In this document: one piece after another, positions 19,104 through 58,870 of the stretch
Layout: every line of letters starts with the position of its first letter
How positions within the stretch are numbered: the stretch's first letter is position 1
Assembly: GCA_965225985.1 (NCBI GenBank)
Contig: OZ245330.1
Span: forward strand, 3,098,019-3,162,018
Direction: 5' to 3'
DNA: 64,000 nucleotides
DNA from: a bacterium
GTDB lineage: Bacteria > UBA8248
The notes under the pieces: generated by a model
Told to the model about the DNA's origin: nothing
The model's input: the letters and a program-made list of their open reading frames with translations, nothing else
The model's database searches: none
Program-made: the position numbers and the translations under genes

Positions 19104-19126
19104 AAGCCAACTACCGGAAATTCGGG
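19104..19126 (+). repeat. Dispersed-repeat core copy (AGCCAACTACCGGAAATTCGGGG, then a duplicated AAATTCGG)
   Basis: Exact core. Further copies at 21614-21636 and 22304-22326 inside the tandem array. Confidence 0.7.
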
Positions 19127-19270
19127 GAAATTCGGAAAATTTTAAACGGGGAAAATCAGGCCGCGGGGGAGGGGTTCTCCCTGATGCGCCTGGCCGGAGC
19201 TCCCCCGCCCCGGGAGAGGGCTGGGGTGAGGGAAACTGCGCCTCGGCGACTTCAGTCCTTCCTGTTTTCC

Positions 19271-19495
19271 CTACTTGTTCGTGACCCTGACATCGAGTGT
19301 TGTGCCGGTGCTCTGAATTCCAATTGGCACGTATGCTAAATCAGGATTGATCCTTTCCCCGGCCACCCCGACAACATCCACCTGCATCACCCCCTGCGCG
19401 CCCAACCCCCCCGGCGCGAGCCAGGGGTTCAGCGCGATGAGCGTTAAGGCGAGGGCGATGACGGTCCAGACGACGTTCTGATATATCCCGCGCAT
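19271..19495 (-). CDS. Small membrane protein, copy 1 of the MRGIY family (constant N-terminal TM helix, variable C-terminus)
   Basis: MRGIYQNVVWTVIALALTLIALNPWLAPGG followed by a unique 40-aa tail. Confidence 0.55.
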   Translation of the reverse strand: MRGIYQNVVWTVIALALTLIALNPWLAPGGLGAQGVMQVDVVGVAGERINPDLAYVPIGIQSTGTTLDVRVTNK

Positions 19496-19833
19496 TTGAA
19501 TTCTCCTTTGGGATGGGCAGCGGAACTCGTTCTCACGCCCATTCTACCGCCATCCTTTCCGGCCGGTCCCCCTCCCTGCCCTCCCCCGAAGGGGGAGGGA
19601 AAAATGCTCCCCCTCCCCCCCGGGGGGGGGTTGGGGGAACCCCCAAAATCAAAGATTTTAGGGGGCCCCGGGGTGAGGGAAAAAATAACCCCCGCGCAGG
19701 GCATGGCCCGGAATGAAAGGCGCGAGGCGTTCAGAATTACATGAGGGGGGGGGGAATCCGGGATGCGGGGGAAGGAATTTCACCCTCTCCCCTTGGGAGA
19801 GGGTGAGGGGGATGAGGGGTGAGGGGAAAAATC

Positions 19834-21291
19834 CTACGCCCGCCCGAGGTCGATCCGCCGGGTGCGCCGGCGCTTCTCCTCGAGGAGGCGGAAGAGGCGC
19901 TCGACGCTCCGCTCGTCCGGGAGGAACGCCCCGCGCAGGTCCACGTTGTACGCCACCGAGCCCCCGCCGCCGGAAACGCCCGACCGCTTCAGCGCCCGCA
20001 CCATCACCTCGGTCATCATGCGCAGCCCGCGCTCGTCCTCGAGGGGAACGATGGCCTCGGCGCGGCCGCGCTCCCCCACGTTGAGCCGGGCGGGCCCCAG
20101 GGCGAACGCCCCGTGCTGTGCGCCGTCCCCGTCATCGATCCGGCTGGTAAGAAACGGCGCGAGGATCTTCCGCGCCGCTTGGCGGTTGCCCCCTGTTCGG
20201 CGTATCACTTCTTCAATCGACGGCCGGAAATTCGGATCGGAGGAACTTTGAACGTTCCCCGTCGCAGACAGTCCCGCCAGTTTTCCGAGCCTCGTGATCT
20301 CGGCGATGTTCGCCGCGCCGGACATCTCAGGCGTATTTTTTGGGGTATTCATCCGCTTGTTGAGGGCGAGGGCGAGTGCAGCCCCGCCCCCGAGAGCCGC
20401 CGCAGCGCCCGCGCCGCCCAGACCCGCGATGAGTCCAGCGGATGAACTCGTGCCCGCTGCCGCCGCACCCGCGCCCGCAGCGGCGGGCCCCCCCGCAGCC
20501 GCGCTCGCTGCTGCGCTTCCTCCGGCGGCTACAAAGCCAGCCTGACCGACGGCGGGAACTACGGTGGACGAAAGCCCCGCGCTCGCGCCGAACGTGGACG
20601 CTGCGGTCGCCCCGCCCCCGATTCCGAGCGCGCCCAAAGCGGCAGACCCGGCGGCGCTGACTCCTTTGCTCGCAACCTCCCCGAGCAACCCCCCGGTGCC
20701 GAGCGGAGAGCCTTTCACCTCAAGTCCCAGGGCGCGCTGCACCAGGTTGGCGAAGGGCGCGACGAGGCTCTGCTCCACGATCCCCGCCGCCATCTTCGCG
20801 AGGGCGCGCATGAAGGTGTCCTTCATGCTCCTGACGAACCTGTCCCACTGGGTCAGGAACTTGTCGGTGTTGTTCCGAAAGCGCACGAAGAGGAGGTCTG
20901 CCAAAGCCGCGTCCGTGCTTCTTGCAAATCCTTCGAACGCCTCCCTCGCCTTAACTGCCACGAACGTATTTTTGCGGAGGGCCTCTTCCGAGTCCCTCAG
21001 ATAATCTCCCATGGCGGTGCGGAGCTGCTCCAGGTGGCCCGTCTGATCTTTCGCCGCCTTGCCGGCTTCCACCGCTTTTTTGACGAATACACCGTGCGCC
21101 TCGGCCGCTTCCAGCAATCCTTTTCTCAAGGCGTCCGTGGACTCGGAAAGTTGCGCGAAATCCTTTGACGCTTTGCCGGTGTCCTTCCCCATCCTCCCGA
21201 GAAGCTTCAAGAGCTTTTTCAGCATCTCGGCGAGATTGCCACCACCATCAACGTTGACTTTTACACCGTTCATCCCGTTCGCCAAGACCAC
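19834..21291 (-). CDS. Phage tail tape-measure-like protein
   Basis: 485 aa. Helical N-terminus, a long Gly/Ala-rich central region and a C-terminal domain. It sits between tail-tube-side and baseplate-side genes. Confidence 0.55.
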   Translation of the reverse strand: MVLANGMNGVKVNVDGGGNLAEMLKKLLKLLGRMGKDTGKASKDFAQLSESTDALRKGLLEAAEAHGVFVKKAVEAGKAAKDQTGHLEQLRTAMGDYLRDSEEALRKNTFVAVKAREAFEGFARSTDAALADLLFVRFRNNTDKFLTQWDRFVRSMKDTFMRALAKMAAGIVEQSLVAPFANLVQRALGLEVKGSPLGTGGLLGEVASKGVSAAGSAALGALGIGGGATAASTFGASAGLSSTVVPAVGQAGFVAAGGSAAASAAAGGPAAAGAGAAAAGTSSSAGLIAGLGGAGAAAALGGGAALALALNKRMNTPKNTPEMSGAANIAEITRLGKLAGLSATGNVQSSSDPNFRPSIEEVIRRTGGNRQAARKILAPFLTSRIDDGDGAQHGAFALGPARLNVGERGRAEAIVPLEDERGLRMMTEVMVRALKRSGVSGGGGSVAYNVDLRGAFLPDERSVERLFRLLEEKRRRTRRIDLGRA

Positions 21292-21304
21292 TTCTCCTTA
21301 TTTG

Positions 21305-21490
21305 CTACCGCTCAACTTTAACGTGAATGGGTGTGGCAGAAGCAATTGACCTTCTACCTATTTTAGCGATATCCACCTCCATCACTCCCCGCGCACTTAA
21401 TCCCCCCGGCGCGAGCCAGGGGTTCAGCGCGATGAGGCTGAGGGCGAGGGCGATGACGGTCCAGACGATGTCCCGATAGATCCCGCGCAT
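21305..21490 (-). CDS. Small membrane protein, MRGIY family copy 2
   Basis: MRGIYRDIVWTVIALALSLIALNPWLAPGG followed by a unique tail. Its stop is 14 nt before the tape-measure start. Confidence 0.55.
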   Translation of the reverse strand: MRGIYRDIVWTVIALALSLIALNPWLAPGGLSARGVMEVDIAKIGRRSIASATPIHVKVER

Positions 21491-21653
21491 TGGAATTCTC
21501 CTTTTTGGATGGCGGTGTATGATTCATCGTTCGCCCATTCTACCGCCATCCGGCCCGCCCCGCCCGGGGTGGGCCGCCCGCCAACGTGGGAATCTATAAG
21601 AGGAGGATGAAAACCCAACTACCGGAAATTCGGGGAAATTTAAATGGGGAAAA

Positions 21654-21947
21654 TCAGGCCGCCAGGGGGAGGGACTTTTCGAGGGAGAAGCTGAATTGCC
21701 CGAGGAGGCTTACTTGTTTTTCCACCGAGTCGGAGGCTTCGCCGGTTTTTCGGCCGAATTTATTCTGTGCATCGGTTGCTTCCTTCAAGCCTTTTTTCAT
21801 CTCGTCCGTGGGCTTGATGATCTTCCGGATACTGTCCGCCGCGGTCTTTGCGCTGACCCCCGTTTGGTCGAGACTTTTGGTAAAATTTTTCAGTGACTTT
21901 GTCGCCTCGTCTCTTACTTTGACAGAAATTTCAATTCCATTTGCCAA
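21654..21947 (-). CDS. Truncated paralog (97 aa) of the tape-measure N-terminus
   Basis: MANGIEISVKV...KKGL aligns to the tape-measure N-terminus MVLANGMNGVKV...RKGL. It ends ...EKSLPLAA, just before a dispersed-repeat core. Confidence 0.45.
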   Translation of the reverse strand: MANGIEISVKVRDEATKSLKNFTKSLDQTGVSAKTAADSIRKIIKPTDEMKKGLKEATDAQNKFGRKTGEASDSVEKQVSLLGQFSFSLEKSLPLAA

Positions 21948-21972
21948 GACTGTCTCTCCTTAGACTCTCCTA

Positions 21973-22164
21973 TTACTTGCTTTCAATAACCACAACAGGA
22001 ATAGGTTCATAAGAAATGCCTTTACCGCCAACACTAACAATATCCACAGGAGTAATTATCCCCTGCGCACCCGACCCCCCCGGCGCGAGCCAGGGGTTCA
22101 GGGCGATCAGCGTTAAGGCGAGGGCGATGAAGGTCCAGACGACGTTCTGATAGATCCCGCGCAT
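21973..22164 (-). CDS. Small membrane protein, MRGIY family copy 3
   Basis: The internal ATG of ORF 21973..22275 is preceded by AAAGGAGAG and encodes MRGIYQNVVWTFIALALTLIALNPWLAPGG.... Confidence 0.55.
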   Translation of the reverse strand: MRGIYQNVVWTFIALALTLIALNPWLAPGGSGAQGIITPVDIVSVGGKGISYEPIPVVVIESK

Positions 22165-22354
22165 GATTGTTCTCTCCTTTTGGATGGGCGATGGAATGCG
22201 TTCTCTCAAAAACATTCTACCGCCATCCGGCCCGGCCCGCCCGGGGTGGCCGCCCCGGGGAGGCCCGCCCGCCAACGTGGGAATCTATAAGAGGAGGGAG
22301 GAAACCCAACTACCGGAAATTCGGGGAAATTCGGAGGGGTGCAGGAAGGAAAAC

Positions 22355-22624
22355 TTAGGCCGCGAGTGAGAGGGATTTTTCGAGATGCGCCTGGCCGGAG
22401 CTCCCTCTCCCCCCGGGAGAGGGCTGGGGTGAGGGAAACTGCGCCTTGGCCGCTACCTCCAATCCCTTCTTGAGGTCGGCCGTGGGCCTGATCATTTTCC
22501 GGAAGGACCCGGCCGCTTTTCGCGCGGACTTTTCCGTTTGATCGAGAGTTTTGCTGAAACCCTGGAGGGACTTGGCCGCCTCGCCCTTCACTTCGACATA
22601 AACCGCTACCTTATTTTCTGCCAA
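22355..22624 (-). CDS. Truncated paralog (89 aa) of the tape-measure N-terminus
   Basis: MAENKVAVYVEVKGEAAKSL...KKGL...EKSLSLAA, homologous to 21654..21947. Confidence 0.45.
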   Translation of the reverse strand: MAENKVAVYVEVKGEAAKSLQGFSKTLDQTEKSARKAAGSFRKMIRPTADLKKGLEVAAKAQFPSPQPSPGGRGSSGQAHLEKSLSLAA

Positions 22625-22679
22625 GACGGTTTCTCCTATTAAACACCAACCTCAATCATTTCATCATGAAAAGTTCCGA

Positions 22680-22862
22680 TTAATCCAAAACTCTAACAGG
22701 AATAGAAGCGCCTACTCTGAATCCGCTTATCCGAACAACATCCACCTTCACAATCTCCGACTGCGCACTCAAACCCCCCGGCGCGAGCCAGGGGTTCAGC
22801 GCGATCAGCGTTAAGGCGAGGGCGATGACGGTCCAGACGACGTTCTGATAGATCCCGCGCAT
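22680..22862 (-). CDS. Small membrane protein, MRGIY family copy 4
   Basis: MRGIYQNVVWTVIALALTLIALNPWLAPGG...VRVLD. Confidence 0.55.
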   Translation of the reverse strand: MRGIYQNVVWTVIALALTLIALNPWLAPGGLSAQSEIVKVDVVRISGFRVGASIPVRVLD

Positions 22863-22922: not shown

Positions 22923-23488
22923 ATCCCTCCCCCTTGTGGCGGCGGAGGCCGGCGCCCCTCGGGGCGGCGCGGCGCTCGAGCTCGAGGCCGGCCTCGAGGG
23001 CTTCCTGGTTGAAGCGGAACTCCTCCCAGCTAGCCTCCGCCAGAAGGTGCGGGGGCAGGCCGTAGGTCTTCGCCTGGAGGTGGATCAGGGCGAGGAGCTC
23101 CCGCCGGGCCCGTCGGAAAGGGGGCGGGGGCCGCCTCTCCTCCCCCGGCGGCGAGGGCGCCCAACTCGCCCACGGCGGCGAGGATGGCGCCGGCGTCCTC
23201 GGCGGTGAGCTCGTGGACGCTGAGCTCGGCCGGGCCGCACGCGCCGGGCTCCTTGTCGGTCATGGCCCCGCGCTCGGGCAGGAAGCACCGGCGGAGGACG
23301 CAGTGCACCCAGTCCCCCATGGCGGCCGCCCGCCCGGCCGCGTCCTCCGCGGCGCCGTTCTGGCCGGCGGGCAGGAGGCGGGGGTAGGCGGCGAGGTCCA
23401 TCACGCTCGGGGCGCGGACGAAGCCCCGCAGCCCCGAGGGCAGCTCGATGGGCCTTCGGCCCCGGTTGCGGTAGGCGCTGATGTCCAT
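22923..23488 (-). CDS. Phage hypothetical protein (tail-assembly position), probably frameshifted
   Basis: The ATG is preceded by AAGGAG. The N-terminal frame (MDISAYRNRGRRPIELPSGLRGFV...) switches near 23090-23120 into ...ELLALIHLQAKTYGLPPHLLAEASWEEFRFNQEALEAGLELE...*. Confidence 0.4.
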
Positions 23489-23514
23489 GGCGGGATCTCC
23501 TTTTTCCATGACTG

Positions 23515-24651
23515 CTAGGTGAACTGGATCTGGATCTCGTCGTCCCCGGTGTTCCGCGCCATCGAGAAGGGGACCTCGTAGGTGAGGAGGCCGTCCCGGT
23601 CCCCGAGGCCGATGTCGCCGTACTGGCACTTGGGGGCGGTGACGGTGCAGATGTTCCCCGCCGCCTGGCCCACCTGGACGCTGAGGGCGAGCTGGTTCTG
23701 CGCCTCCCACTTGGCCCAGACGTCCTCGGTGGCCTTGAGGACGGCCTCGGGGTCGAACGAGCCCGCCGGGGCGCGGCCGGTGACGAGGGAGTTGATGTGC
23801 CCCCCGGTCTGGTTCGCGCTCCGGCGCAGGGCGACGGTGTTGTTCATCGAGAAGGTGATGGACGCCGCGTCGAAGTTGAACCCGCCGAAGGAGAAGGCCG
23901 CCACCAGGGCGGGCTCGGGAAGCTGGGCGTCGTAGGCGCTCCCGGCGACCAGGGAGGCGTCCGAGACCCGGAAGTCCGCCGCGGTGAACTCCCAGTCCAC
24001 CGTCGGGACGGCGTCGAGGGGGACGTTGAGGGTGAAGGTGCCCATGCAGCCCATGTAGAGGACGCGCAGGCCGTCGATGAAGGCCGTGACGGCGCAGCGG
24101 GTGAAGCTCGACTTGTCCGAGATGGGGGCGTAGGTGACCGAGGTGCCGCCCACGACGGTCTCGCTCATCCCGCACGCCTTGAAGAGGATGCCGTAGTCCG
24201 GCGCGGTGCCCGCCGCGCCCGAGCCGCGCAGCTCGGCGGTGAAGGAGATCCGCGCCGAGCGTCTTCCCGCGACGAAGGGGAAGGGCGAGAGGCTGTCGTC
24301 CCGCACCGCCCGCTCGAGGCGCTCGACCTCGAGGTCGTGCGAAAAATTCCCCGCCCGGAAGAGTTCCGCCGCCGGGGCGGGCCGCTCGAGGAGGTAGACC
24401 GTGGTCGAGTCGGGCACCGGGCTCAGGGTGCCCACCGTCAGGGTGTCGCTCGCCGCGTCGAAGTCGGTGACCGAGACCTACTGGCCCACCCCGACGCCCC
24501 GGATGGTGCGAAGGGTCGAGCCGTTCCAGAAATCGTCCGCCTCGGTGCGCGCCGCGTCCACGACGGTGGTGGCGGTGGCGCTGTCCATCGTTCCTTCCAA
24601 CTCCTCGGTCGCGCCGATGATCTGGCGCTCCATCAACAGGGTATCGCCCAT
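23515..24651 (-). pseudogene. Phage major tail (tube)-like protein interrupted by an in-frame TAG at 24478-24480
   Basis: MGDTLLMERQIIGATEEL...TIRGVGVGQ[TAG]VSVTDFDAASDTLTVGTLSPVP... continues in the same frame for another 306 codons. Confidence 0.5.
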
Positions 24652-24716
24652 CTCTTTGCCTCTCCCTTTCTTTTAGGAAAAATGCTCTCGTCCTTTGAAT
24701 GCGGCTCTCCCCGGCC

Positions 24717-25236
24717 TCACGCCCGGGTGATCCGCTCGAAGGCCTGGAGGCGGATCTCGGCGTAATGGCAGAGAACCCCCCCGAAGGCCCGCGGTTCGAT
24801 GACGTCCACCTGGGGCGGCTGAAGGCGCTCCAGGGTGGGGACCTTGCTTCGGAGCCGGAGGGCGTCGTTCGATCGGAAGCGGTCGCAGACCGCCTCGATG
24901 AGGTCCTGGAAGACGAGCTCGCTCGCCGCGCCGTCCTTCAGCCCCATGATCCCGGCGAGGAGGAAGGTGTGGGCCCGCCGGTTCACCCCCGCGGGGATGA
25001 GTCCGCCCGGGGCGCTCGCGCCGAATCCGCCGAGCGCCTCGCTCACCCGCTCGCGCGTGACGATCCAGCCGCGAATTTGATCCCCTCCGTCCGGCGCCTC
25101 CCAGCGGAACAGGCCGATGTACTTCGCCATGTCGGCGGCGGTCCGCTGGTAGAGGTGCACCCTTCCGGCGTTTTCCACCGCCTCGATTTCGGCGGCGACC
25201 GCCGCGCCGATATCCTTGTAGAATGAGCTAGCCACG
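24717..25236 (-). CDS. Phage head-tail joining / neck-region hypothetical protein
   Basis: GTG start overlaps the upstream stop (GTGGCTAG). 173 aa, VASSFYKDIGAAVAAEIEAV.... Confidence 0.45.
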
Positions 25237-25743
25237 CAGCCTCCCCGCGATGTCGGCGCCGAGCCTTTCCACCCGGCGCGCAATGGGCCCCATGCTTTTT
25301 TCGAGGGCGTCCCGGAACATGTGCCGGCCCGCGGTGCCCCTCCGCCCGATGGCGCGCGCGATGAGGAAGGCCGCCGAGCGGGCCTCCCCGCCGCTGACCC
25401 CCAGCACCCGCTCCACCCAGCCGTAGAGGGAGGAGCCGGGCCCCGAGGGGGGCCGCCGGCCCGGGCCGCGCCCCTCCTCGACGGGAAGGGCGTAGGCGAG
25501 CGGGGTGGCGACGGTGCCGCGAAGCGAATCGAGCGCGCTCCCGCGCACCTCGGATACGATCGAGCCCCGAAGCGCGCCCGTCGCCCCCCGGGGGGTACCG
25601 GCGGCGGCGCGTGCATGAATCATCTCCACGATGTCTCCCACGGCCCGCGCGGCCTCCTCGAAAACGACGCCCGCGGGATCGGCCCCATCGCCCGCGAGGG
25701 GGCCGGCCCGCTCAAAGGTGAGACTCCAATCTCCTTTCGCCAT
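25228..25743 (-). CDS. Phage hypothetical protein (head-tail connector region)
   Basis: 172 aa starting MAKGDWSLTFERAG.... It is the C-terminal segment of the long spurious ORF 25228..27276. Confidence 0.45.
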   Translation of the reverse strand: MAKGDWSLTFERAGPLAGDGADPAGVVFEEAARAVGDIVEMIHARAAAGTPRGATGALRGSIVSEVRGSALDSLRGTVATPLAYALPVEEGRGPGRRPPSGPGSSLYGWVERVLGVSGGEARSAAFLIARAIGRRGTAGRHMFRDALEKSMGPIARRVERLGADIAGRLRG

Positions 25744-25757
25744 TCCAGCCTCCCGCG

Positions 25758-26480
25758 CTAGCGCTCCCCGGGGCCGCCGTGGGTCAGGTACCGGCCCCGC
25801 CGCTGGGAGAGCGCCTCGTCCCAGTCGAGGGAGTGGCCCGCCGGGCCCGCCGTATCCCCCTCGCGCTGGCCGATGTGGGCCTGGTACTTGCGCTCGAGCT
25901 CCTTGGCGAGCCGGGTGTACTCGGACGCCTTGCTCGGGTAGCTCACCGCGTCCGCCCCGATGAGGGGCTCGGCGCTCTGGGCGAACCGCCGGGCGAGGAT
26001 GTGGCACCCTTCCGCCGCGGCGAGCCAGGCCGCCGCGATCAGGTCGTTCGCCGGGATGCTCGTTGCGGCGTCGTCCGCGGTGTGCGGCGCCGCGTAGAAG
26101 AGCCGCGCCGTCTCCCCGGTGCCGGGGGTGAGCCGCAGGAGGCGAAGCTTCGCCGCCGAGGTCGCCGCCCCGTAGATCGTCCAGTCCCGCCGCTGCAGGT
26201 AGACAGGCTCGCGCTCCCCCTGGGGGTACTCGACCGCGAGCACCGTCGAGAGGGCCGCGTCCCAATCCGCGGGCAGGCTGAAGTCGTACGCCGCACCGTC
26301 GCCGGCGTAGTCCTGAAAAGCCTTCCGCGGCCGGTCCTTGCTGTAGCGGGCGAGGGCCGCACGGACGAGGTCCGCGAAATCCGCCTCGGCCAGTGCGACC
26401 TCGGGCGGGATCTCGCCCGACTTCAAAAAGACCTTCACGTCCGCGATGATGGTTTGTCGTGATGACACTGCGTTCTCCAC
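25758..26480 (-). CDS. Phage hypothetical protein
   Basis: Clean 240-aa ORF (MENAVSSRQTIIADVKVFLKSG...). Confidence 0.55.
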   Translation of the reverse strand: MENAVSSRQTIIADVKVFLKSGEIPPEVALAEADFADLVRAALARYSKDRPRKAFQDYAGDGAAYDFSLPADWDAALSTVLAVEYPQGEREPVYLQRRDWTIYGAATSAAKLRLLRLTPGTGETARLFYAAPHTADDAATSIPANDLIAAAWLAAAEGCHILARRFAQSAEPLIGADAVSYPSKASEYTRLAKELERKYQAHIGQREGDTAGPAGHSLDWDEALSQRRGRYLTHGGPGER

Positions 26481-26513
26481 GGGACTGGGGCGGGGTAAAT
26501 TCCCCGCCCGCCC

Positions 26514-26808
26514 CTAGGTTTTGACCGCCAGCTTCGCCTCGAAAGTGAACGAGGGGCTCGACCCTCCGATGTCCCACGAGAGACGGAACCACTTCCCGAG
26601 GTTCGTCAGCTTGACGAGGGTCTTGCCCGTACCCGTGATTTGCGCCGGCTCGGTGTGGATGTAGCCGAGCGCGTCGTCCGCCGGCCCGGCTTCGATATCG
26701 AAATCGAGGGTGGGTGAACCGCCCGACGTCGAAGGGCGTGCTCTCGCCGTCCGCCGTCCGGGCCGCTGAGGCGGCCAATGTGATCGTCTTGGTCCTTCTG
26801 TCCGCCAT
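26514..26808 (-). CDS. Phage small structural protein, apparently frameshifted
   Basis: MADRRTKTITLAASAARTADGESTPFDV... shifts near 26735-26745 into ...PTLDFDIEAGPADDALGYIHTEPAQITGTGKTLVKLTNLGKWFRLSWDIGGSSPSFTFEAKLAVKT*. Confidence 0.4.
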
Positions 26809-26818
26809 GATCGGGCTC

Positions 26819-27099
26819 CTAGAAATCGAGGTAGAGCTTCGCGCCGGCCCCTGTGAGGACCGCGTGGAGCCCCACGCCGAAGCGGATGCCGCCCGGCGCC
26901 AGGTCCAGGCTCTTGGACACTCTCCGGCGGGCGCGTTGACGGCCCGCAGCACGGTGCCGGAGGCCGCCGTGTTGTCGTACAGCGTGACAGTGGCCGCCGC
27001 GCCGGAGCCCGCCGTGAGAATTCCGCCCATGAGCTTTCCGTTCCCCGTCGTCGCGGTGCCGGTGGCGGTAACCTCTGTCGTTTCGACTGGATGGATCAT
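26819..27099 (-). CDS. Phage small structural protein, apparently frameshifted
   Basis: MIHPVETTEVTATGTATTGNGKLMGGILTAGSGAAATVTLYDNTAASGTVLRAVNAPAGE... shifts near 26925-26935 into ...VSKSLDLAPGGIRFGVGLHAVLTGAGAKLYLDF*. Confidence 0.4.
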
Positions 27100-27145
27100 C
27101 GTGTACCTCCCTTTCCCGTTCTGGGCCGTCCCGGGCCGCCGCGGG

Positions 27146-27571
27146 CTAGTTGGGCGAGAATTCCACCGTGACCGCGAAGGGGGGCAGCGCCATTCCACTT
27201 CCCACCTGCTCGACCTGGAGTCCGAGCTGGTTTCCGGTGGAAACCGAGAGGGGGCTGGCCGGGCTGTAGAGGTCATAGCCCGCGACTCCGATGTCGTTTC
27301 CGCTCGTCAGGTCATAGTTCGCAAGCTCGGCCGCGCCGGCGCCGTTCGTCCCGCGGTCGATGAGATTCAGGTTCTTGGTGTTCGTGTTCTGGCCGGTGAC
27401 GGCCGCGCCGGGCACCACCCGAACCTTCTCGATCTTGCAATTCACCGGGGCTTCGAAAATCACGTAGGTGGTGCTGGCGTCCGCGGCGGCGGCGGCGGCG
27501 GCGGCGGCGGCCGGGGAGACGACCGTCTTGTCGTGGGTTCCCGGGACGTCGCAAGCCTGTCTGTTGCTCAT
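27146..27571 (-). CDS. Phage head-associated hypothetical protein (decoration-like)
   Basis: 141-aa ORF with an Ala-run and beta-rich composition. Preceded by a CCCCAAAAATCACAGATTTTGAGG element. Confidence 0.45.
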   Translation of the reverse strand: MSNRQACDVPGTHDKTVVSPAAAAAAAAAADASTTYVIFEAPVNCKIEKVRVVPGAAVTGQNTNTKNLNLIDRGTNGAGAAELANYDLTSGNDIGVAGYDLYSPASPLSVSTGNQLGLQVEQVGSGMALPPFAVTVEFSPN

Positions 27572-27696
27572 TTTTTTCTCCTTTCTCTAAACGGGTCGAA
27601 AAGAGACCCTTTCGCAGGGACGAGGGCCACCCCAAAAATCACAGATTTTGAGGACCCGGGGCACGCCTCGCCCCTGCGAGTTCAATTGACAATCGG

Positions 27697-29805: not shown

Positions 29806-30092
29806 TCCCCGGCCGGGGCCTTTGTTGGCCCCCGTTGCTGCGGGGAACAGGGGGGAGCGCGCCAAGCGCTTTCTTCCGGCTCTGAGAAATCGGTTCAACA
29901 CGGGTTTCTCTCCTCTCTTTCCTTTTGCTTCTCTCCCATCAGGGCGTTCGGGCGCCGCGACGGGTTCCCATTTCCCGGATCTTCCGGCCCGCCGCGGAAG
30001 GCCCTTTCGACCGACTCCCGCGGGGAGGGAAAAACCCGTGCGGCCGGCCACCCCGGCCGCGCGAGGAGGAATCTAAATGAAAAAGGGACTGG

Positions 30093-41229: not shown

Positions 41230-41231
41230 TG

Positions 41232-47420: not shown

Positions 47421-49763
47421 GTGCAATGTCCCGCCTGCCAGCATGAAAACCGGGATCGAGCGCACTTTTGCGATCAGTGCGGCGCCAGGTTAGAGCGATC
47501 CTGCCCCCACTGCGGAAACGCCGCCCGGCCGGGCGCCGCCTTTTGCGACCAATGCGGAGGGGCTCTCGAATCCCCCGCCCCCGCCGCTTCCCCTCCCCCG
47601 GGCCTGGAGGCGCGGGCGGAAGCCTTCGCCAGCCGGATCCCCAGCTACACCCCCGCGCACCTGGTCAAAAAAGTGCTGACCTCCCGGGGCGCCATCGAGG
47701 GAGAGCGCAAGCAGGTGACCGTCCTCTTCGCGGACGTTTGCGGCTTCACCGGGCTCTCGGAGCAGCTGGACCCGGAAGAGGTCCACGGCCTCATGGACCG
47801 CTGCTTCGAGATCCTGATGCGCGAGATCCACCGCTTCGAGGGGACCATCAACCAGTTCACCGGGGACGGGGTGATGGCCCTCTTCGGCGCGCCCGTCGCC
47901 CACGAGGACGCGCCCCAGCGCGCCATCCGGGCGGCCCTGGGCATCCAGGGGGCGCTCCGCCAGGAGGCGCTCCGCGAACAAGGCGCGGATTTCCCGGGCG
48001 GGGAGGGCGCGGCGTTTCAGATGCGCATCGGCATCGACACGGGCACCGTGGTGGTCGGCAAGATCGGCGACGACCTGCGGATGGACTACACCGCCGCGGG
48101 GGACACCACGAACCTGGCCGCCCGCCTCCAGGCCGCCGCCGAGCCCGGCACCGTGCTGGTCAGCGAGAACACCCACCGCCTGACGAAGGATTTTTTCGAG
48201 TTCTCCCACGCCGGGCCGATCGAGGTGAAAGGGAAGAAAACCCCGGTGGCCGTCTACGGCGCGATCCGGCCCAAGGCGGTGCGCTCGCGCATGGAGGCGG
48301 CCGCGCGGCGCGGGCTCACCCCCCTGGTGGCCCGGGACGCGGAGATCGGCCACCTCATGACCGCCTTCGCCAAGGTCAAGGAGGGCCACGGCCAGATCGT
48401 CTCGCTGGTGGGCGAGGCCGGGGTCGGCAAGTCCCGCCTGGCGCACGAGTTCAAGAAGCGCCTCCGCGGCGAGGACATCACCCTCTTCGAGGCCTACTGC
48501 CCCTCCTACGGCCATGCCACCCCCTACCTGCCCGTCGCCCAGATCATAAAAGGCTACTGCGGCATCACGGACGCCGACAACGAGGTCAAGATCCGGGAGA
48601 AGGTGACATCGGCCTGAAGCCGGTGGGTCTCGTGGGGTCACCACGAGGGGCTGGACATCACAAAAAGGCTCGAATACGTCATCGCCTATCTCAGCAACAT
48701 CATCTCCATCCGGGTGAAGGACGATCTGCTGCAGGGCATCAGCCTGGAGGATCGCAAGCGGGAGAGCTTCGACGGGCTGAAGGCCATGTTCGTGGGCGAG
48801 AGCCAGGAGAAGCCCGTCGTGGTCATCCTGGAGGACATCCACTGGATCGACAAGATCTCCGAGGAGTCCTTCGACTACCTGAGCGCGAGCGTTCCCAAGA
48901 ACCGGCTCCTCGTCCTGGCGCTCCACCGCCCGGAATACCGGTGTCCCTGGGGGACGAGCTCGAGCTACCTTCGGATTCCCGTCGAGCCGCTCTCCCCCGC
49001 CGAGAGCGACGAGATGATCCACCGCGTGCTGGAGGTCCCGGAGGTGGGCCGGGAGGTGAAGGAGCTCGTCCAGGCCAAGAGCGAGGGAAACCCCTTCTTC
49101 CTGGAGGAGCTCATCCTGGAGCTGCGGGAAGCCGGGTGGATCCGGACGGAGAAAAACGCCTGCCGCATGGTGGGCGCCGGGGCGAAGGCGCAGGTGCCCG
49201 CCACCGTCCAGGACGTCATCATGGCCCGCATCGACCGGCTGGCGGATCCCCTGAAGCACACCCTCCAGCTGGCCGCCGTGATCGGCCGCGAGTTCCCCTT
49301 CGCCGTCCTGGAGAAGATCGCCGATCCGGCCCACCAGCTGGAGCCCTCGCTCCAGTCCCTCCAGCATTCGGAGTTGATTACGGAAAAGAACCTCTTCCCG
49401 GAGCTGGAGTACATGTTCAAGAACGTCCTCACCCAGAACGTGGCCTACAACAGCCTGCTCGTTCAGCGCCGCCGCGAGCTCCACACCCGGATCGCCGCCG
49501 CCATCGAGGAGCTCAAGCGGGACAGCCTGGAGGAGCACTTCGAGGTTCTGGCCCACCACTACAAGAGCGGCAACCAGCCCGGGAAAGCCTTCGAATTCCT
49601 GGCCCGCGCGGGAGAGAAGGCGATGGAACTGCACTCGGTGGAGGTGGCCGAGAGCTACTACAACGACGCCATCGCCATCGCCGCCGAGCTGGACCCTTCA
49701 GACGCGGCGAGGGAGAAGGGGCGCGAGCTGAAGTCGAGGCTGCGGGAAATCGGCACGTACTAA
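47421..49763 (+). pseudogene. Second zinc-ribbon/adenylate-cyclase/STAND/TPR paralog, interrupted by one in-frame TGA (48615-48617); otherwise a single frame
   Basis: ORFs 47421..48617 and 48714..49763 share a frame. Cyclase blocks (VTVLFADVCGFTGL, GDGVMALFGAP), Walker A GEAGVGKSRL and TPR repeats are present. The sequence reads KVTSA[TGA]SRWVSWG.... An extended -10 promoter (TGGTATAAT) lies at about 47303. Confidence 0.7.
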
Positions 49764-51771: not shown

Positions 51772-52042
51772 GATCTTTCCTCCCGATGGGGGTCCCGAAT
51801 CCCCCCGCCTTGTCCGATGTCTCCGTAAGTCAACCGCTTACTATCTTTCGGAATTATATTACATCCTCCCGCAGCACTCGTCCGCCGAAAACCGCCCGTT
51901 TGTGAACCCGTTCACGCACCGGGAGTGATGGGTTCACAACCGGCGGATTTCGGCCCCGCTTGACGGCCCCCCGCGGCCCCATTATGTTCGGGCCGTCCCG
52001 ATCATGCCTCTACATATACATACCTCTATATAAGGAGCGGCC

Positions 52043-53026
52043 GTGGCCGAGGTGCTGATCCTGAACCGGCGGGAGGTGGAAGAACTCCTCACCCTGGAGG
52101 TCATCCTCCCCGTCATCGAGCGCGCCTTCGTCGCCTTCGCCGAGGGCCGGACGGTGGCCTATCCCGTGGTGCGCGAGGAAGTCGCCGCCCACCGGGGGAT
52201 TTTCGGCATCAAGTCGGGCTACCTCACCGACGAGGAGGTGATCGGGCTCAAGGCGGGGGGCTTCTGGCTGGGGAACCCGGCGCGGGGGCTGACCGCCCAC
52301 CAGTCCACCACGGTGATGTTCGACCCGGCGACCGGCCTTCCGACCGCCCTCATGGACGGAAACCACATCACCACCATCCGCACCGCCGCGGTGGGCGCCC
52401 TGGCGGCGCGAGAGCTCTCGCGCGGGGACAGCCGGACCGCGGCCGTCCTCGGCTGCGGCACCCAGGGGACGGGCCAGGCCGGGGCGCTCTGCCACGTCCG
52501 CCCCATCGAGCGGCTGCGCGCCTTCGACGTCATCGAGGAGAGCCGGGAGCGTTTTGCAGGGATTTGCCGGGCGAAGGGCATCGAGGTCGAGACCTTCGAT
52601 TCGCCGGAGGAGGCGGTGCGCGGGGCGGACATCATCGTGACCGCGACGCCCGCCAAGGCGCCCGTCCTCCGGGCCGGCTGGGTGGGGCCGGGGACCCACG
52701 TGAGCGCCTTCGGGACCGACACCCGGGGGAAGAACGAGGTGGAGGCCGCCCTCTTCCCCCGGGCGCGCGTGGTGGTGGACGACATCGCCCAGGCCACAAC
52801 CATCGGGGACACCCAGCACCCGGTGGGCCAGGGCCTGATGTCGGAGGCGGACATCCACGCCGAGCTCGGCGAAATTCTGGCGGGAAAGAAAAAGGGAAGG
52901 GCGTCCGCCGAGGAGATCACCCTCTTCGACGGCACCGGGCTCGCCTTTCAGGATCTGATCGCGGGGCACCTCGCCATGGAGCTCGCCGCCGAGAGCGGCG
53001 CGGGCGTGCGGGTGGAGTTGAGCTGA
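52043..53026 (+). CDS. Ornithine cyclodeaminase / mu-crystallin family protein
   Basis: Rossmann 'VLGCGTQG', plus TIRTAAVGALAA and the overall OCD_Mu_crystall pattern. Confidence 0.82.
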   Translation: MAEVLILNRREVEELLTLEVILPVIERAFVAFAEGRTVAYPVVREEVAAHRGIFGIKSGYLTDEEVIGLKAGGFWLGNPARGLTAHQSTTVMFDPATGLPTALMDGNHITTIRTAAVGALAARELSRGDSRTAAVLGCGTQGTGQAGALCHVRPIERLRAFDVIEESRERFAGICRAKGIEVETFDSPEEAVRGADIIVTATPAKAPVLRAGWVGPGTHVSAFGTDTRGKNEVEAALFPRARVVVDDIAQATTIGDTQHPVGQGLMSEADIHAELGEILAGKKKGRASAEEITLFDGTGLAFQDLIAGHLAMELAAESGAGVRVELS

Positions 53027-53421
53027 GGGGGGGGGAATGAATCGGCTCGAATTGTTCGGAAATCATCTTAAGTCATGAAGAAAAGACATATCCGGCAAAT
53101 CTAGAGGGTTTCGTGAAAAGATCCAGATACCTCTCTACGCGCTGCAGGTTTCACCATCGAAGTTGTTCCAAGAATTAGGGCGAAGGCGCAAAATTCGGAA
53201 GACCCGCCACTTTACGTCGATTTTGCCTTCCGTGTGATGCTATTGCGAACAGTTTTAAATCCCTCTGCAACTGAGCCAGAAGAGTAAACTTTTGTACCGC
53301 GGATTTCAGTTTTCTTTAGAGTTATACTCGGCACTTTATCTGATTTGTTACGAATGACGATTTCGCTTTTCTTTGGCATCTTTCTCTTTCCCCACATATG
53401 GGGCGTAACTTCAATAAAATC

Positions 53422-54126
53422 TCATGTTTCCAGGGAACTTGAAATAACAGCCATCCAGGTAAACAACTCCTCGCTAGTAATAACTTCCGAAATAGAATCT
53501 GTAACCCAACTATCGATACTCAAAACGCCTAGAAATCTGTCGCTACTATCTACCAATCCAATGCAGAGAATGGAACGAATTTCTTGCATTGAATTACTTA
53601 TTCTGGAGGCATCTTTTTGAGCAAATTTCAACTCTTTTGTATAATAATTCTCAAATGCTTTCCTGGAATCGAAAGGGCCAAATTTACCCTCTGTGGGCCA
53701 TTGAAAGATTTCAAGCGGACGTTCCCACGCCAAACCGGAAATAAAATATCCTTTGCGGAACCGAGCCTGTGAAGACCAGTCAGATTCGTCACCTAGCTGC
53801 CATCGACAAGTTGGAACAATAAATTCTGAATTGTAATTTGGCTGCTGTAATATGGATAATCGATAGCCTGAAACACGCCCAAAGAAATGTAAATATGCAG
53901 CTCTAAGTACGACCTCTTCAACCCGTCGCCGGTCTCGCTTACGAGTTCCCAACAAACGAAAACCATGCGCCAATAAATAAATTACACTAAATGCGCCAAC
54001 CGTCCCTAATGAAGAAATTGCTGAGCCAATGCCGACGCCGACCGTCCCGATGTGTCCGCAGGATTCTTGAAATTTCCTGGAACGGAACCATCGCAGAAAT
54101 TTTCTTGAATGGAACCATCGCTGCAT
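53422..54126 (-). CDS. Hypothetical membrane protein in an AT-rich island
   Basis: 234-aa ORF. Direct repeat at the N-terminus (HSRKFLRWFRSRKFQES), then a TM segment. A 61-aa basic ORF (53212..53397) follows 24 nt downstream. Confidence 0.4.
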   Translation of the reverse strand: MQRWFHSRKFLRWFRSRKFQESCGHIGTVGVGIGSAISSLGTVGAFSVIYLLAHGFRLLGTRKRDRRRVEEVVLRAAYLHFFGRVSGYRLSILQQPNYNSEFIVPTCRWQLGDESDWSSQARFRKGYFISGLAWERPLEIFQWPTEGKFGPFDSRKAFENYYTKELKFAQKDASRISNSMQEIRSILCIGLVDSSDRFLGVLSIDSWVTDSISEVITSEELFTWMAVISSSLET

Positions 54127-54265: not shown

Positions 54266-54871
54266 TTACCCCTCCCCCTCCTCCCGCACCACGATGGGCC
54301 TTCCACTTTCGTCGAGCTCGAGGACGCCCGCTCTGGCCTCTTCCTCCGCCGCCGCCCGGTCGGCCACCTCGCGCACGGCGTCCAGCAGGTCGGGGTGATC
54401 GGGCAGGTCCTCGGCCATTTTTGCGAGGATGGCCCGCTTCGCCGTCTCGAACCCTTTGGTGAACTGAAGGCGGAGCCTGTCCGCATCGTTCCGCGAGCGC
54501 TCGAGGGCGATCACCATGCGGGCGAGCTGATCGGGGGCGAGCTTGGCCATGGCCTCGGGGGTCACCTCCGCCACCGCCTCGGCCGCCTGGGCGAGGAGCA
54601 TTCCCCGGGCATAAGAGGCCGCCCCCGCGCCGGGATTCTTCTCGATGATCTTGTCCACGAGGATCTCCACCCGCTGCATCTTCTCGATGCCCTCCTGGAT
54701 CCGCCGGTTGTGGCGGCCCATCGAGAAGAGGTGGATGCGCTCCCCGGTCGCCTCCTCGAAGGCCTCGCAGGCCTCCTGGAGGGTGCCCCCTTCCAGCAGA
54801 ATGGGGTTCGCCTTTTCCTCCGCGCGGTGCCGCTGGACCTTGGTGGGGATAAGTTTCCTGTAGCGGCCCAT
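54266..54871 (-). CDS. Hypothetical protein, possibly phage-related (terminase-small-subunit / DUF3486-like; weak call)
   Basis: 201 aa. The ATG overlaps the upstream stop (ATGA). Helical and charged. Confidence 0.4.
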   Translation of the reverse strand: MGRYRKLIPTKVQRHRAEEKANPILLEGGTLQEACEAFEEATGERIHLFSMGRHNRRIQEGIEKMQRVEILVDKIIEKNPGAGAASYARGMLLAQAAEAVAEVTPEAMAKLAPDQLARMVIALERSRNDADRLRLQFTKGFETAKRAILAKMAEDLPDHPDLLDAVREVADRAAAEEEARAGVLELDESGRPIVVREEGEG

Positions 54872-54873
54872 CA

Positions 54874-55203
54874 CAGCTCTCCCACCAGGATGCCGGGCTC
54901 CTCGGGGAGCGCCCCTTCGAGGAGACCCCTTCCCCTGCGGGTGAGGTGGACCTCGTAGTCGGTGAGCAGGCGCCCGACCGCGCCCGGCACGATCTTCTTC
55001 AAAAAACCCCGCCCCGCCAGCTCGTCCACGAAGCGCTCGAGCGTCTCCCGCGGGAGGGGCGCGCCCCCTTCGTGGTGGCCCGCTTCGCGGAGCGCGCTCC
55101 AGAGCATGAGGCTCCCCACCCCGGTGCCCCGTTGGAAGGCCCCGCGGTAGTAAAGCGTTTTCAGGACATCGCCCCGCAGGACGCCCGCCGCCAAATCGTT
55201 CAC
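54874..55203 (-). CDS. Small winged-helix-like hypothetical protein
   Basis: 110 aa (MNDLAAGVLRGDVLKTLYY...FVDELAGRGFLKKI...). Coupled to the downstream gene. Confidence 0.4.
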
Positions 55204-55612: not shown

Positions 55613-55693
55613 CCCCGGCCTCCGTTTCGCGCGCCCGCCGGGGCCCTTCCGCCCCGGCCTCGCCACGCCCCGAATGTAGCCGAGCGGGCCCGA

Positions 55694-55716
55694 AAGCCAA
55701 CAACCGGAAATTCGCG
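55694..55716 (+). repeat. Dispersed-repeat core, diverged variant (AGCCAACAACCGGAAATTCGCGC)
   Basis: About 85 nt upstream of the minus-strand gene 55253..55612, in a divergent intergenic region. Confidence 0.6.
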
Positions 55717-55794
55717 CAGTTTCGCGGCGGAAATCCGCCCGGCGGCGTGGTAGACTCGGGTCCGCCGCTGCCCCTCGAATCGTGAGGCAAATCA

Positions 55795-57705: not shown

Positions 57706-57779
57706 TTTTCCGCCCTCCCGGTACGATTCTACCACCCGGGGGGAGAAGGGGAAGAGGGGGAGAAACGGCGGCGCCCGCT

Positions 57780-57962
57780 AATTCCTCCCCCCGGCCGGCC
57801 GCTTCATCCCGGCGATCTGCTTTTCGAGCTTTTCGATGTGGGCGCGGAGGCGGCGGGTTTCCTCCCCGGCGTGCGCTTCGAGGGCGATGAGGTATTCGAG
57901 GATCTCGCGCCACTTCCCCGCCCGGAAGCAGACCCGCGGCGCGAATTCGCCCACGGCCAGCC
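57780..57962 (-). CDS. Small coiled-coil protein downstream of the holin (spanin-like position; weak call)
   Basis: (V)GEFAPRVCFRAGKWREILEYLIALEAHAGEETRRLRAHIEKLEKQIAGMKRPAGGRN*. Confidence 0.3.
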
Positions 57963-58003
57963 CGGCGAGGGTGTCCTCGGGCCGGCGGGGCGGGGATTTT
58001 CCC

Positions 58004-58211
58004 TCAGCGGATGCGCTTTTGCGCCCGGATGCGGCCGGCGATGGCGAGAAGGCCGCCCGCCCCGCCGCCCGCCGCCGCGAGCAGGGAGGCGATCTGGGCC
58101 TGCTCCGCCTCCGGGACGGCGTAGCCAAACAGGGCCGCCCCCCCCGGCGAGCAGGGCGACGATCCCGCCCCACACGCCCTTCGATGCATACCAGTTCTTG
58201 AAGTCCGTCAT
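58004..58211 (-). CDS. Holin-like small membrane protein; frameshift in a C8/G8 run (58138-58145)
   Basis: MTDFKNWYASKGVWGGIVALLAGG, then a shift to ...AALFGYAVPEAEQAQIASLLAAAGGGAGGLLAIAGRIRAQKRIR*. Two TM segments. Confidence 0.5.
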
Positions 58212-58246
58212 CTTGTTTCTCCTTCCGGTAAAGGGGCCGGCGCGGC

Positions 58247-58742
58247 TCACCACCGAACGCCCGGCCGCCAGTTCAGGGGGTCGGGATTCGGCTCGAGCAG
58301 AAAGCCCGCCCCGAGGTGAAGGTGTGTCTCGCCGTAGAGGCGCGTTCCGATCCGGAGGCCGGAGTCTGTCTCTTCGAGCCACCGTGCGAAGCGGCGGATC
58401 TCTTCTTGAAGCCTTTTTTTCACCCTCACTCCACCCGCCCTCCGGCCGGGCGCGGTACCGCCAGGGGCGAAGGTCCAGCGCGACGTTGTACTCGTGCTCG
58501 GAGCGCGCCGCCGCCCGGTAGCGCGGGCTGCGCCGCAGGCGGGCCTGGCACCCGGCGCAGCGGAAACCCGAGGTGATCGCGATGGGGGCGCCGCGGCGCG
58601 CGCGGAGGGCGTGAAAGGCTTCGAGCAGGCGGGGCTGGTGGCGGAACAGGCTGTCCCCGCAGCGGACCCCCGCCTCGCGCACCTCCCCGTGGGGGCAGGA
58701 GAGAACGTCGTACCGCGTGTCGATGTAGCGTCCGATCTTCAT
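58247..58742 (-). CDS. Peptidase M15-family endolysin (L-alanyl-D-glutamate peptidase-like); frameshift in an A7/T7 run (58414-58420)
   Basis: MKIGRYIDTRYDVLSCPHGE...ITSGFRCAGCQ...SEHEYNVALDL..., then a shift to ...KRLQEEIRRFARWLEETDSGLRIGTRLYGETHLHLG...*. Confidence 0.55.
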
Positions 58743-58847
58743 GCCGCGCGCCTCCCGGCGGAGGTTGATGCAGGGGCAGGCGCGCCGGCCCCCCCGGCGG
58801 GGACCGCGAGCGCAGCCCGCTCCGGGCAATGTAGAGGGCGCGGCCGG

Positions 58848-58870
58848 ACCCAACTACCGGAAATTCGGGC
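58848..58870 (+). repeat. Dispersed-repeat core copy (ACCCAACTACCGGAAATTCGGGC)
   Basis: About 100 nt upstream of the endolysin start, in a divergent intergenic region. Confidence 0.65.

Follow-up and report, generated by a model that had tools for sequence, protein, structure and literature searches.

How a short repeat comes to stand ahead of one phage-type gene after another, in a region where those genes are interrupted by genes of other kinds, is the question raised by a 64-kb stretch of contig OZ245330.1 (GenBank assembly GCA_965225985.1), from a bacterium of the lineage UBA8248. This whole stretch is referred to here as the window. Positions 1-14041 hold host genes (an F420 biosynthesis operon, PmbA/TldD, and a GAF-SpoIIE phosphatase), and the minus strand of 14057-58742 carries phage-type genes with non-phage genes interspersed, as judged from Pfam and PHROG matches. 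The repeat has the core AGCCAACTACCGGAAATTCGGGG and occupies spaces between these genes. We consider it likely that the repeat is a promoter that heads each piece of a fragmented, chromosomally inherited phage cluster, and that its copies keep the pieces co-regulated. From the anatomy and orientation of the repeat, its conservation across species, the synteny of the genes and the purifying selection acting on them, we infer promoter activity, dependence on an activator, and co-regulation.

A search of the window that tolerated up to three mismatches returned 11 matches to the core, all on one strand, at positions 19105, 21613, 22304, 30092, 32823, 35685, 36406, 42079, 44778, 55695, and 58848, and none in dinucleotide-shuffled sequence. 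The initial annotation of this stretch had reported at least 11 copies in the same orientation, and its positions agree with ours within 1 nt. When the window is scored with a position-weight matrix of the surrounding 53-nt module, the 11 sites receive 31-77 bits and the rest of the 64 kb stays below 8 bits. Because no site outside the 11 reaches 8 bits, the family consists of exactly 11 members and is sharply bounded. No copy is present in ~38 kb of flanking host DNA, compared with 11 copies in 40 kb.

Every copy (11 of 11) is intergenic, and ten are located 82-385 nt 5′ of a minus-strand start codon that is preceded by a ribosome-binding site (RBS). Once RBS-supported starts are used, the distances given earlier as 40-130 nt become 82-242 nt. 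The eleventh copy, at 35685, is a duplicated promoter together with the 5′ end of the portal gene. This copy and the one at 42079 had been listed as exceptions to the association with gene starts, but both have ordinary explanations, since the former is the duplicated portal promoter and the latter lies upstream of the minus-strand genes at 41798-40942. Two long copies, L1 (32668-32860) and L2 (35531-35725), share ~90% identity across ~190 nt, as first described. The copies at 36406 and 42079, previously called 3′ partial copies, indeed carry the core plus part of the leader, with ~85 nt and ~56 nt, respectively, of the L1/L2 downstream leader. In four single copies the edges of the core are sharp and the flanks are unrelated.

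Scans of public collections, which had been suggested as a check, yielded only chance-level matches to the core. Among GTDB representative genomes there are 71 single matches, all within unrelated coding DNA and equal in number to the chance expectation. IMG/VR gave one match, attributable to chance, and JGI metagenomes gave two, of which the one looked at was also due to chance. These collections therefore do not include the species. A search of a phage database with the repeat produced no match, an Rfam scan of the window returned nothing at the gathering score, and a tRNA scan of the window found no tRNA.

Read on the minus strand, the module spans ~53 bp and consists of a distal box, a proximal box, GGTAGTTGGCT, a spacer, and a −10 hexamer. 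The boxes are two tandem 10-bp direct repeats of CCGAATTTCC located at approximately −59 to −40, with the distal box being degenerate (CGAAnnT). Both boxes are perfect in two copies, and the distal box of the other copies matches at 4-8 of 10 positions. Within the box, the flanking CG and CC bases are conserved as strongly as the A/T tract. The segment GGTAGTTGGCT holds a weak −35 element, TTGGCT, and the variants seen in window copies (TTGGCT, TTGGGT, and TTGGCC) agree with TTGACA at three to four of six positions. The spacer is 16 nt long and its sequence is not conserved, such that five unrelated sequence classes share one constant length. Copy 58848 has a 14-nt spacer in the window, but four further assemblies of this species (L089-L092) show 16 nt there. 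The −10 element conforms to TAnnnT in nine of the 11 copies (TACATT, TAGATT, TAGGCT, or TAGACT) and is CAGGCT in the other two. A scan with the sigma-70 consensus does not call these sites, which match 8 of 12 positions; this outcome fits weak promoters that would need a helper, rather than counting against a promoter function. The tail (A/G)GGTTTGT plus a run of G nucleotides, initially reported as usual for the family, is present in the four B-type copies only, and in general this position corresponds to the reverse complement of the degenerate second box CGAAnnT.

The 11 copies are as follows.

58828-58878, minus strand: module P58848, consisting of distal box, proximal box, GGTAGTTGGGT, spacer, and TACATT; heads the lysis block
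55673-55725, minus strand: module P55695, found by core search and position-weight matrix
44756-44808, minus strand: module P44778, found by core search and position-weight matrix; orthologous copy at 11937 in sister genome L093
42057-42109, minus strand: module P42079, B-type, with −10 element CAGGCT; 5′ of two genes of unassigned function (41798-40942) in a low-GC island
36384-36436, minus strand: module P36406, B-type; 5′ of the receiver-only response regulator at 35755-36225 and kept in strain L074
35531-35725, minus strand: L2 (module 35663-35715), a duplicated promoter with the 190-nt portal leader, RBS, and first portal codons
32668-32860, minus strand: L1, comprising module P32823 (32801-32853) and the portal leader; orthologous copy at 17855 in L093
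30070-30122, minus strand: module P30092, found by core search and position-weight matrix; 5′ of the capsid block
22282-22334, minus strand: module P22304, A-type; 5′ of a small MRGIY gene (start 22164)
21591-21643, minus strand: module P21613, A-type; 5′ of an MRGIY gene (start 21490) and the 485-aa tape-measure-like gene (19834-21291)
19083-19135, minus strand: module P19105, A-type; 5′ of the distal tail block

L2 has no intact downstream gene and adjoins the 3′ end of a plus-strand M20 peptidase gene. Together, L1 and L2 bracket a DUF3800-M20 block as direct repeats, as would be expected had recombination or duplication at the portal promoter brought this block in.

The distribution of the copies becomes intelligible when the window is compared with the related locus L080, in which the whole gene set is contiguous in the order endolysin, trypsin-like, 111-aa, Mu Gp27-like, terminase, portal, capsid, tube, tape measure, and tail genes. 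The window homologues, located by tblastn, keep this order but are distributed over six separated blocks, with one copy of the module at the head of each.

58742-58250, minus strand: lysis block, tblastn match to L080
55450-54383, minus strand: small-terminase block, tblastn match to L080
44656-43040, minus strand: large terminase block, tblastn match to L080
32557-31328, minus strand: portal block, tblastn match to L080
27571-23171, minus strand: capsid-to-chaperone block, tblastn match to L080 for the genes 3′ of the capsid; the match for the capsid gene (27697-29901) comes from the comparison with other relatives
20358-16761, minus strand: block from the end of the tape measure to the distal tail, tblastn match to L080

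The earlier remark that the region from 44.8 to 59 kb lacks the contiguous organization of a prophage is thereby explained: the cluster is fragmented, yet its ancestral order is kept. Four copies beyond the six block heads are associated with cargo genes or are remnants of duplication. In the sister genome L093 (~90-95% DNA identity), other cargo lies between the blocks, and again there is one copy per block. When the window is aligned with L093, the homologous stretch begins precisely at the element's upstream boundary, both for the terminase promoter and for the portal promoter, indicating that cargo turns over directly 5′ of the module. It is in this one sense that the repeat delimits cargo blocks, as had been proposed.

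More distant relatives, whose phage proteins are 61-78% identical to those of the window, lack the 23-mer found in the window and carry instead GCGCATTTCC CCGCATTTGC or the variants ACGAATTTGC and ACGCATTTCC. These boxes are positioned exactly 27 nt 5′ of TAnnnT, and they occur upstream of the terminase gene in L081, L084, and L085 and upstream of the capsid gene in L078, L079, L084, and L085. The loose pattern GnATTTnn-N27-TAnnnT has eight matches in ~130 kb of sequence from these relatives, against a mean of 1.0 in shuffled sequence and 0-3 matches for other spacings. All but one of the matches are terminase or capsid promoters, and the extra one is in the region upstream of the L081 capsid gene. 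The box is species-specific (CGAATTT versus CGCATTT), with the same version at both promoters of one genome, and the −35-like segment is not conserved, being GC-rich and non-consensus. This combination of a species-specific box and an unconserved −35 points to a sequence-specific DNA-binding factor that would act at approximately −59 to −40.

A further box-like array with a 10-bp period, CCAGAATTTT CCGTAATTTA CCGCATTTTC, is present in L078 (9783-9830), L079, L081 (21287), and L084. The array occupies the intergenic region that separates the capsid gene from the divergently oriented diadenylate cyclase gene, ~70 nt 5′ of the main box pair.

The genomic context of the relatives bears on how the cluster is transmitted. 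Apart from near-identical copies from the same species, homologues of the capsid and portal proteins are found in metagenome-assembled genomes at 62-78% identity; where names are given, these are Nitrospinae, Nitrospinaceae, and Candidatus Tectomicrobia, and several of the homologues reside on megabase-scale chromosomes. No capsid relatives were found in IMG/VR. The relatives have their cluster at one chromosomal site, where the terminase-portal block comes after amt/P-II, host genes follow and end with an opposite-strand diadenylate cyclase gene, and the capsid-to-tube block comes next. The diadenylate cyclase gene adjoins the capsid block in every relative, the window being the exception. 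The capsid-to-tube block of L078 and L079 adjoins cupin-cofE-cofC-cofD, which is precisely its neighbour in the window too. Compared with their window counterparts, the phage proteins are 61-73% identical, a level that matches the flanking host proteins (65% for CofE, 70% for CofD, and 69-72% for the cupin). Ratios of nonsynonymous to synonymous substitution (dN/dS) are 0.12-0.23 for capsid, portal, and terminase compared with 0.10-0.22 for the flanks, and the synonymous divergence (dS) of the phage genes ranges from similar to that of the host flanks to ~1.5-fold higher. These sequence comparisons bear the signature of vertical inheritance with purifying selection, and not that of independent prophage integrations.

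Several other explanations of the repeat must be weighed against a promoter that depends on an activator. The sites might be repressor operators resembling stoperators, which would silence the cluster or block elongation. The core is asymmetric, intergenic, and present in many copies with a single orientation relative to transcription, and in the window it extends over the −35 region, a place at which a repressor could interfere. However, stoperators have no promoter elements of their own, and the module studied here includes a −10 at a fixed distance. The distance of 27 nt is kept across species while the −35 changes, which ties the boxes to promoter geometry, and the non-consensus, GC-rich −35 regions of the relatives argue for activation. 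No repressor gene was found in the clusters, and we regard operators as an unlikely explanation. Slightly less likely still is a promoter that works without any separate activator, either an ordinary housekeeping-sigma promoter whose boxes serve as an UP element or a promoter for an alternative or phage-derived sigma factor. In rrnB P1-type UP elements, the proximal and distal subsites lie near −44 and −54, and the AATTT tracts of the boxes are centred near these same positions; the TAnnnT hexamer and a −35 matching at four of six positions in window copies are likewise compatible with direct recognition. An A/T-rich UP element does not account for the CG and CC flanks, which are as conserved as the A/T tract, or for a box that changes in a species-specific manner at both promoters of a genome. 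The motif also keeps to the phage-derived blocks with their cargo, and no copy of it is present in the ~38 kb of host flank. With 29 nt between the boxes and the −10, contact by an UP-binding surface or by the −35-reading part of a sigma factor fits less well; this distance is too far for a sigma −35 element, and no sigma or RNA polymerase gene is present in the region. Sigma-54 and extracytoplasmic function (ECF)-type promoters were ruled out, given the unconserved spacer and the same 29-nt distance.

The suggestion that the repeat is also simply a mobile or recombinogenic element, of the miniature inverted-repeat transposable element (MITE) or repetitive extragenic palindrome (REP) kind, or a recombination site, draws on several observations: cargo is flanked by copies, the DUF3800-M20 insertion lies between the two members of the 193-bp L1/L2 pair, breakpoints of rearrangement between the window and L093 abut the element, and local tandem duplication has carried copies along. 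However, four copies that were checked show no consistent terminal inverted repeats, hairpin, or flanking duplication (inverted repeats are absent from three of them, and those in L1 are only chance-sized). Moreover, the single orientation matches gene direction, the four single copies have sharp core edges and unrelated flanks, and the module occupies orthologous positions across species with 61-78% protein identity. With no recombinase nearby, and with the Rfam and phage-database searches negative, this part of the initial annotation is not supported and we judge it very improbable. Its other part, a promoter or regulatory element, gains support from the fixed 16-nt distance to the −10, the intergenic co-orientation, and the same layout 5′ of the terminase and capsid genes of relatives. 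Least probable of all is that the functional unit is an RNA, whether a conserved 5′ leader, a riboswitch-like element, or a small RNA. B-type copies do share 56-190 nt of leader with a GC-rich hairpin, and the capsid leader contains a terminator-like hairpin. Nevertheless, the part common to all 11 copies lies 5′ of the putative −10 and so would not be transcribed. When leaders were folded, as had been recommended, three of four were no more stable than shuffled sequences (z = −0.7, +1.1, and −1.3), and the tail leader alone stands out (z = −3.1). None of them belongs to an Rfam family as far as the scan of the window reveals.

The proposal of a promoter shared by the fragments of one cluster also has observations that weigh against it. 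B-type copies have a poorly matching distal box, and L085 shows a single box. No such boxes are seen in the contiguous relative L080, so that not every member of this phage lineage has the module. The part of this genome inspected for copies amounts to ~100 kb. A search for the cognate sigma factor or activator, which the initial annotation had called for, found none in the window or related loci with Pfam and PHROG.

The remaining difficulties concern decay. Strain L074 (ENA ERZ25069191 ctg586413), which is 99.6-99.7% identical to the window, has lost 8351-33424, L079 has no distal tail genes at this locus, and L078 has an insertion sequence (IS) element in the tube gene. In addition, the terminase, endolysin, and tail genes of the window are frameshifted, with the frameshifts that could be located falling in homopolymers of 7-8 nt (44129-44135 in the terminase, 17515-17522 in the tail gene, and 58414-58420 in the endolysin). 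Because the terminase and endolysin reading frames are intact in other assemblies or sister genomes, the frameshifts in these two genes are probably long-read errors. The 2 nt missing from the spacer of copy 58848 probably have the same cause, given the 16-nt spacer of the other assemblies. For the tail gene, a single other assembly spans the homopolymer run, and there the run is identical. The window contains 16 G/C runs of at least 8 nt.

In L074, IS3-family and IS1595-type transposase genes (15436-16708) replace the missing segment, and PmbA/TldD, the GAF-SpoIIE phosphatase, and the whole tail-to-portal region are gone, with copies 35685 and 36406 kept. A deletion of these 25 kb mediated by the repeat was considered and rejected, as the deletion is IS-associated. 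At L078 15158-16642, a DDE transposase gene comes directly after a truncated tail tube gene, which appears disrupted.

On balance we favour the shared promoter, and its origin can be envisaged as follows. An ancestral phage late operon would have run without interruption from lysis through small terminase, large terminase, portal, and capsid to tube and tail. Inserted host and cargo genes would then have split it into six blocks, each carrying a module of its own. A dedicated activator might bind the tandem boxes, which are one helical turn apart beside the weak −35, and recruit the RNA polymerase of the host. Since every fragment has the same module, we propose that the blocks are switched on together as one regulon. 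Local duplication of the promoter, sometimes along with part of the portal leader, would have created additional copies that might now drive cargo, namely two CheY-like receivers, small MRGIY proteins, and two genes of unassigned function. The activator may be encoded elsewhere in the genome. The receiver proteins of the window have no output domain. Searches among the unassigned open reading frames (ORFs) of the window, L079, L080, L081, and L084 (Pfam and PHROG) yielded nothing convincing, and a search against PDB sequences yielded nothing.

One small protein was considered as a regulator. The 110-aa product of 54871-55203 (minus strand), which is 61% identical to an L080 protein and encoded beside the small-terminase-like gene, looked by eye like a winged-helix regulator. 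Neither Pfam nor PHROG nor the PDB sequences gave a match for it, and an AlphaFold model built from its sequence alone was too poor to use (pLDDT 60.6).

The phage-derived genes of the window form a head, tail, packaging, and lysis set (terminase, portal, capsid, tube, tape-measure-like, tail, endolysin, and holin), and no integrase or replication domain was recognized by Pfam among the scanned genes between 14 and 59 kb.

57778-58742, minus strand: lysis block with an M15-type endolysin, a holin-like 68-aa gene, and a 134-aa gene (Pfam Peptidase_M15_3; PHROG endolysin and holin); homologous to L080 1829-2359
54266-55612, minus strand: coiled-coil 119-aa, 110-aa, and Mu Gp27-like 201-aa genes; tblastn matches to L080 3437-5284 in the same order
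43040-44716, minus strand: gpA-type large terminase, ATPase and C-terminal parts (Pfam GpA_ATPase, PHROG terminase)
42237-42749, minus strand: CheY-like receiver-only response regulator (Pfam Response_reg), 3′ of the terminase; L093 has one too
31316-32686, minus strand: portal (phrog_10963 portal, E = 3e-45)
23030-29901, minus strand: protease-capsid fusion (27697-29901), head-tail connector genes, tail tube (23515-24651), and chaperone-like gene (23030-23488) (PF25209, PF18906); collinear with L080 10001-17296
14057-18862, minus strand: distal tail genes (tblastn, phrog_8610), including homologues of three genes (357 aa, 178 aa, and 403 aa) located after the tape measure in L080

The endolysin is interrupted at the T7 run 58414-58420, and its 165-aa ORF is intact in L089-L092. 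The terminase has two frameshifts, one of them at the G7 run 44129-44135, and is intact in L093 and L081. Although its match to Phage_Mu_Gp27 is weak, the 201-aa gene is a probable small terminase. For the capsid gene, the start is at 29901 rather than 30051, in agreement with the 734-aa capsid product P0001. This start explains why an exact look-up of the 784-aa ORF, which begins at the earlier position, returned no match. A terminator-like hairpin at 30040-30060 (minus strand), composed of GCGGCCGG..CCGGCCGC followed by ACGGGTTTTT, is situated where the predicted capsid leader begins, 3′ of the −10 and ahead of the start codon at 29901.

The interspersed non-phage genes encode an FGE-sulfatase, a DUF3800 protein, an M20 peptidase, two receiver-only response regulators, methyltransferases, two zinc-ribbon/adenylate-cyclase/AAA/TPR proteins, an ornithine cyclodeaminase, and a DUF2225 protein. 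This cargo is rich in signalling functions. The two zinc-ribbon/adenylate-cyclase/AAA_16/TPR proteins are paralogous (36481-39822 and 47421-49763, the second interrupted near 48617-48714), and there are three CheY-like receivers, two of them receiver-only (35755-36225 and 42237-42749) and one fused to TPR (45846-47009). The receiver at 35755-36225 is directly behind a B-type promoter copy, and that at 42237-42749 follows the terminase. The FGE-sulfatase gene, split into two ORFs, lies on the plus strand at 30335-31297 between portal and capsid. L085 and L086 have an intact FGE-sulfatase in the same portal-capsid interval, and therefore the insertion is old. Three islands of low GC content (40001-42000, 32001-34000, and 52001-54000; 52-57% GC versus ~65% elsewhere) coincide with cargo of unassigned function (40942-41798, DUF3800, and 53422-54126), and their composition suggests recent foreign acquisition.

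Near the tail genes, at 19271-22862, local duplication is extensive. Four paralogous small genes of the MRGIY type, whose products have a hydrophobic N-terminus, start at 19495, 21490, 22164, and 22862, and no homologues of them were found in the related loci that were fetched. The N-terminus of the tape measure exists as two additional truncated duplicates (21654-21947 and 22355-22624). A unit of ~690 bp, consisting of an MRGIY small gene, the tape-measure N-terminus, and the promoter, is tandemly triplicated between 21.3 and 23.0 kb. Two tandem 48-nt repeats that are 90% identical (18879-18974) are located in the leader of the tail gene that starts at 18862. A second, unrelated repeat family, CCCTCTCCC..GGGAGAGGG, forms a hairpin-capable palindrome between tail-region genes at 19200-19229, 19609-19638, 19783-19812, and 22403-22432.

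Overall, the cluster appears to behave as a domesticated element, and it is a candidate for either a gene transfer agent (GTA) or a conserved defective prophage. We tentatively raise a more specific possibility, which at present seems less likely than not. Nitrospinae/Tectomicrobia-type bacteria might possess an unrecognised GTA-like element in up to six pieces, which would form one regulon under an activator that reads tandem CGnATTT boxes 27 nt 5′ of the −10, with the promoter having been copied onto CheY-like signalling cargo, which would place these genes under the same control. The ~45-kb span of the blocks, cargo included, probably exceeds the capacity of a small head. If the proposal is true, this locus is a candidate domesticated phage cluster in an uncultivated and ecologically important group. 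It would also provide a clear case of a phage operon that tolerates repeated invasion by host genes, with a promoter copy on each surviving fragment. The boxes, spacing, and −10 would further constitute a precise cis-element that could be used to find the regulator and the rest of the regulon by sequence. In practice, the module might serve as a marker for telling inherited clusters of phage origin apart from ordinary prophages when metagenome-assembled genomes of the clade are examined.

To our knowledge, gene transfer agents have been established experimentally in few lineages, and most of what is understood about how they are regulated comes from Alphaproteobacteria. Judging by titles and abstracts, the literature searched contains no description of a gene transfer agent in Nitrospinae-type bacteria. 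The agent of Rhodobacter capsulatus, RcGTA, is encoded at several dispersed loci that are activated by GafA with CtrA (PMC9638019, PMC6363796, PMC5026251). The present cluster resembles RcGTA in that phage-derived head-tail genes are inherited on the chromosome, and in RcGTA the structural, lysis, and accessory genes also occupy separate, co-activated loci. It differs in its phylum, which is of the Nitrospinae/Tectomicrobia type according to the names of homologues, and in its ancestry, as indicated by the PF25209 protease-capsid fusion, the Mu Gp27-like protein, and the gpA-type terminase. In addition, it is the core head-tail operon itself that is divided here; its six pieces keep their order on a single strand, and the 53-bp modules that accompany them are near-identical. 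A GafA-like gene was not found.

The late promoters of phage Mu (Plys, PI, PP, and Pmom), which are activated by protein C, have a good −10, a poor −35, and an activator site in the −40s. As in Mu, several units each have such a promoter, here a predicted one, and the head genes of the window are distantly Mu-like. However, the C site is a dyad, whereas the boxes here are direct repeats with a 10-bp period, and no protein of the Mor/C family was detected. Tandem direct repeats one helical turn apart that abut or replace the −35, in combination with a normal −10, are typical of PhoB/OmpR-type boxes, and the direct repeats beside the −35 region of the module have a comparable 10-bp period. Their sequence is nevertheless unrelated to pho boxes, and the response regulators of the window are receiver-only, without a DNA-binding domain.

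Short repeated intergenic promoter motifs with indel breakpoints at them are also a feature of the PeSL cassettes of T4-like phages, which are composite terminator and early-promoter motifs in the hyperplastic regions of lytic phages, where they mark breakpoints of indels and gene swaps (PMC2839356, PMC4122927). Unlike PeSL cassettes, the module has no consistent stem-loop 5′ of its boxes, and it heads conserved structural blocks of a chromosomal element. The stoperators of cluster A mycobacteriophages such as L5 are asymmetric 13-14-bp repressor sites, lacking a −10, that occupy short intergenic spaces in one orientation. The many asymmetric, intergenic copies in one orientation are similar in the two systems, but here a −10 stands at a fixed distance within the module.

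In CcGTA and BaGTA, GafYZ and BrrG act by antitermination, such that one promoter reads through the cluster (PMC11150451; bioRxiv 10.1101/2024.11.20.624540). A dedicated factor at the promoter of a structural cluster is likewise proposed here, and long leaders and terminator-like hairpins are present as well. In contrast to those systems, each block has its own copy of the putative promoter, which might represent another solution to the same problem. As predicted from the sequences compared, the arrangement is unusual with respect to known late-promoter regulons of phages and gene transfer agents in that the promoter appears to be re-supplied to each fragment of an operon invaded by host genes.

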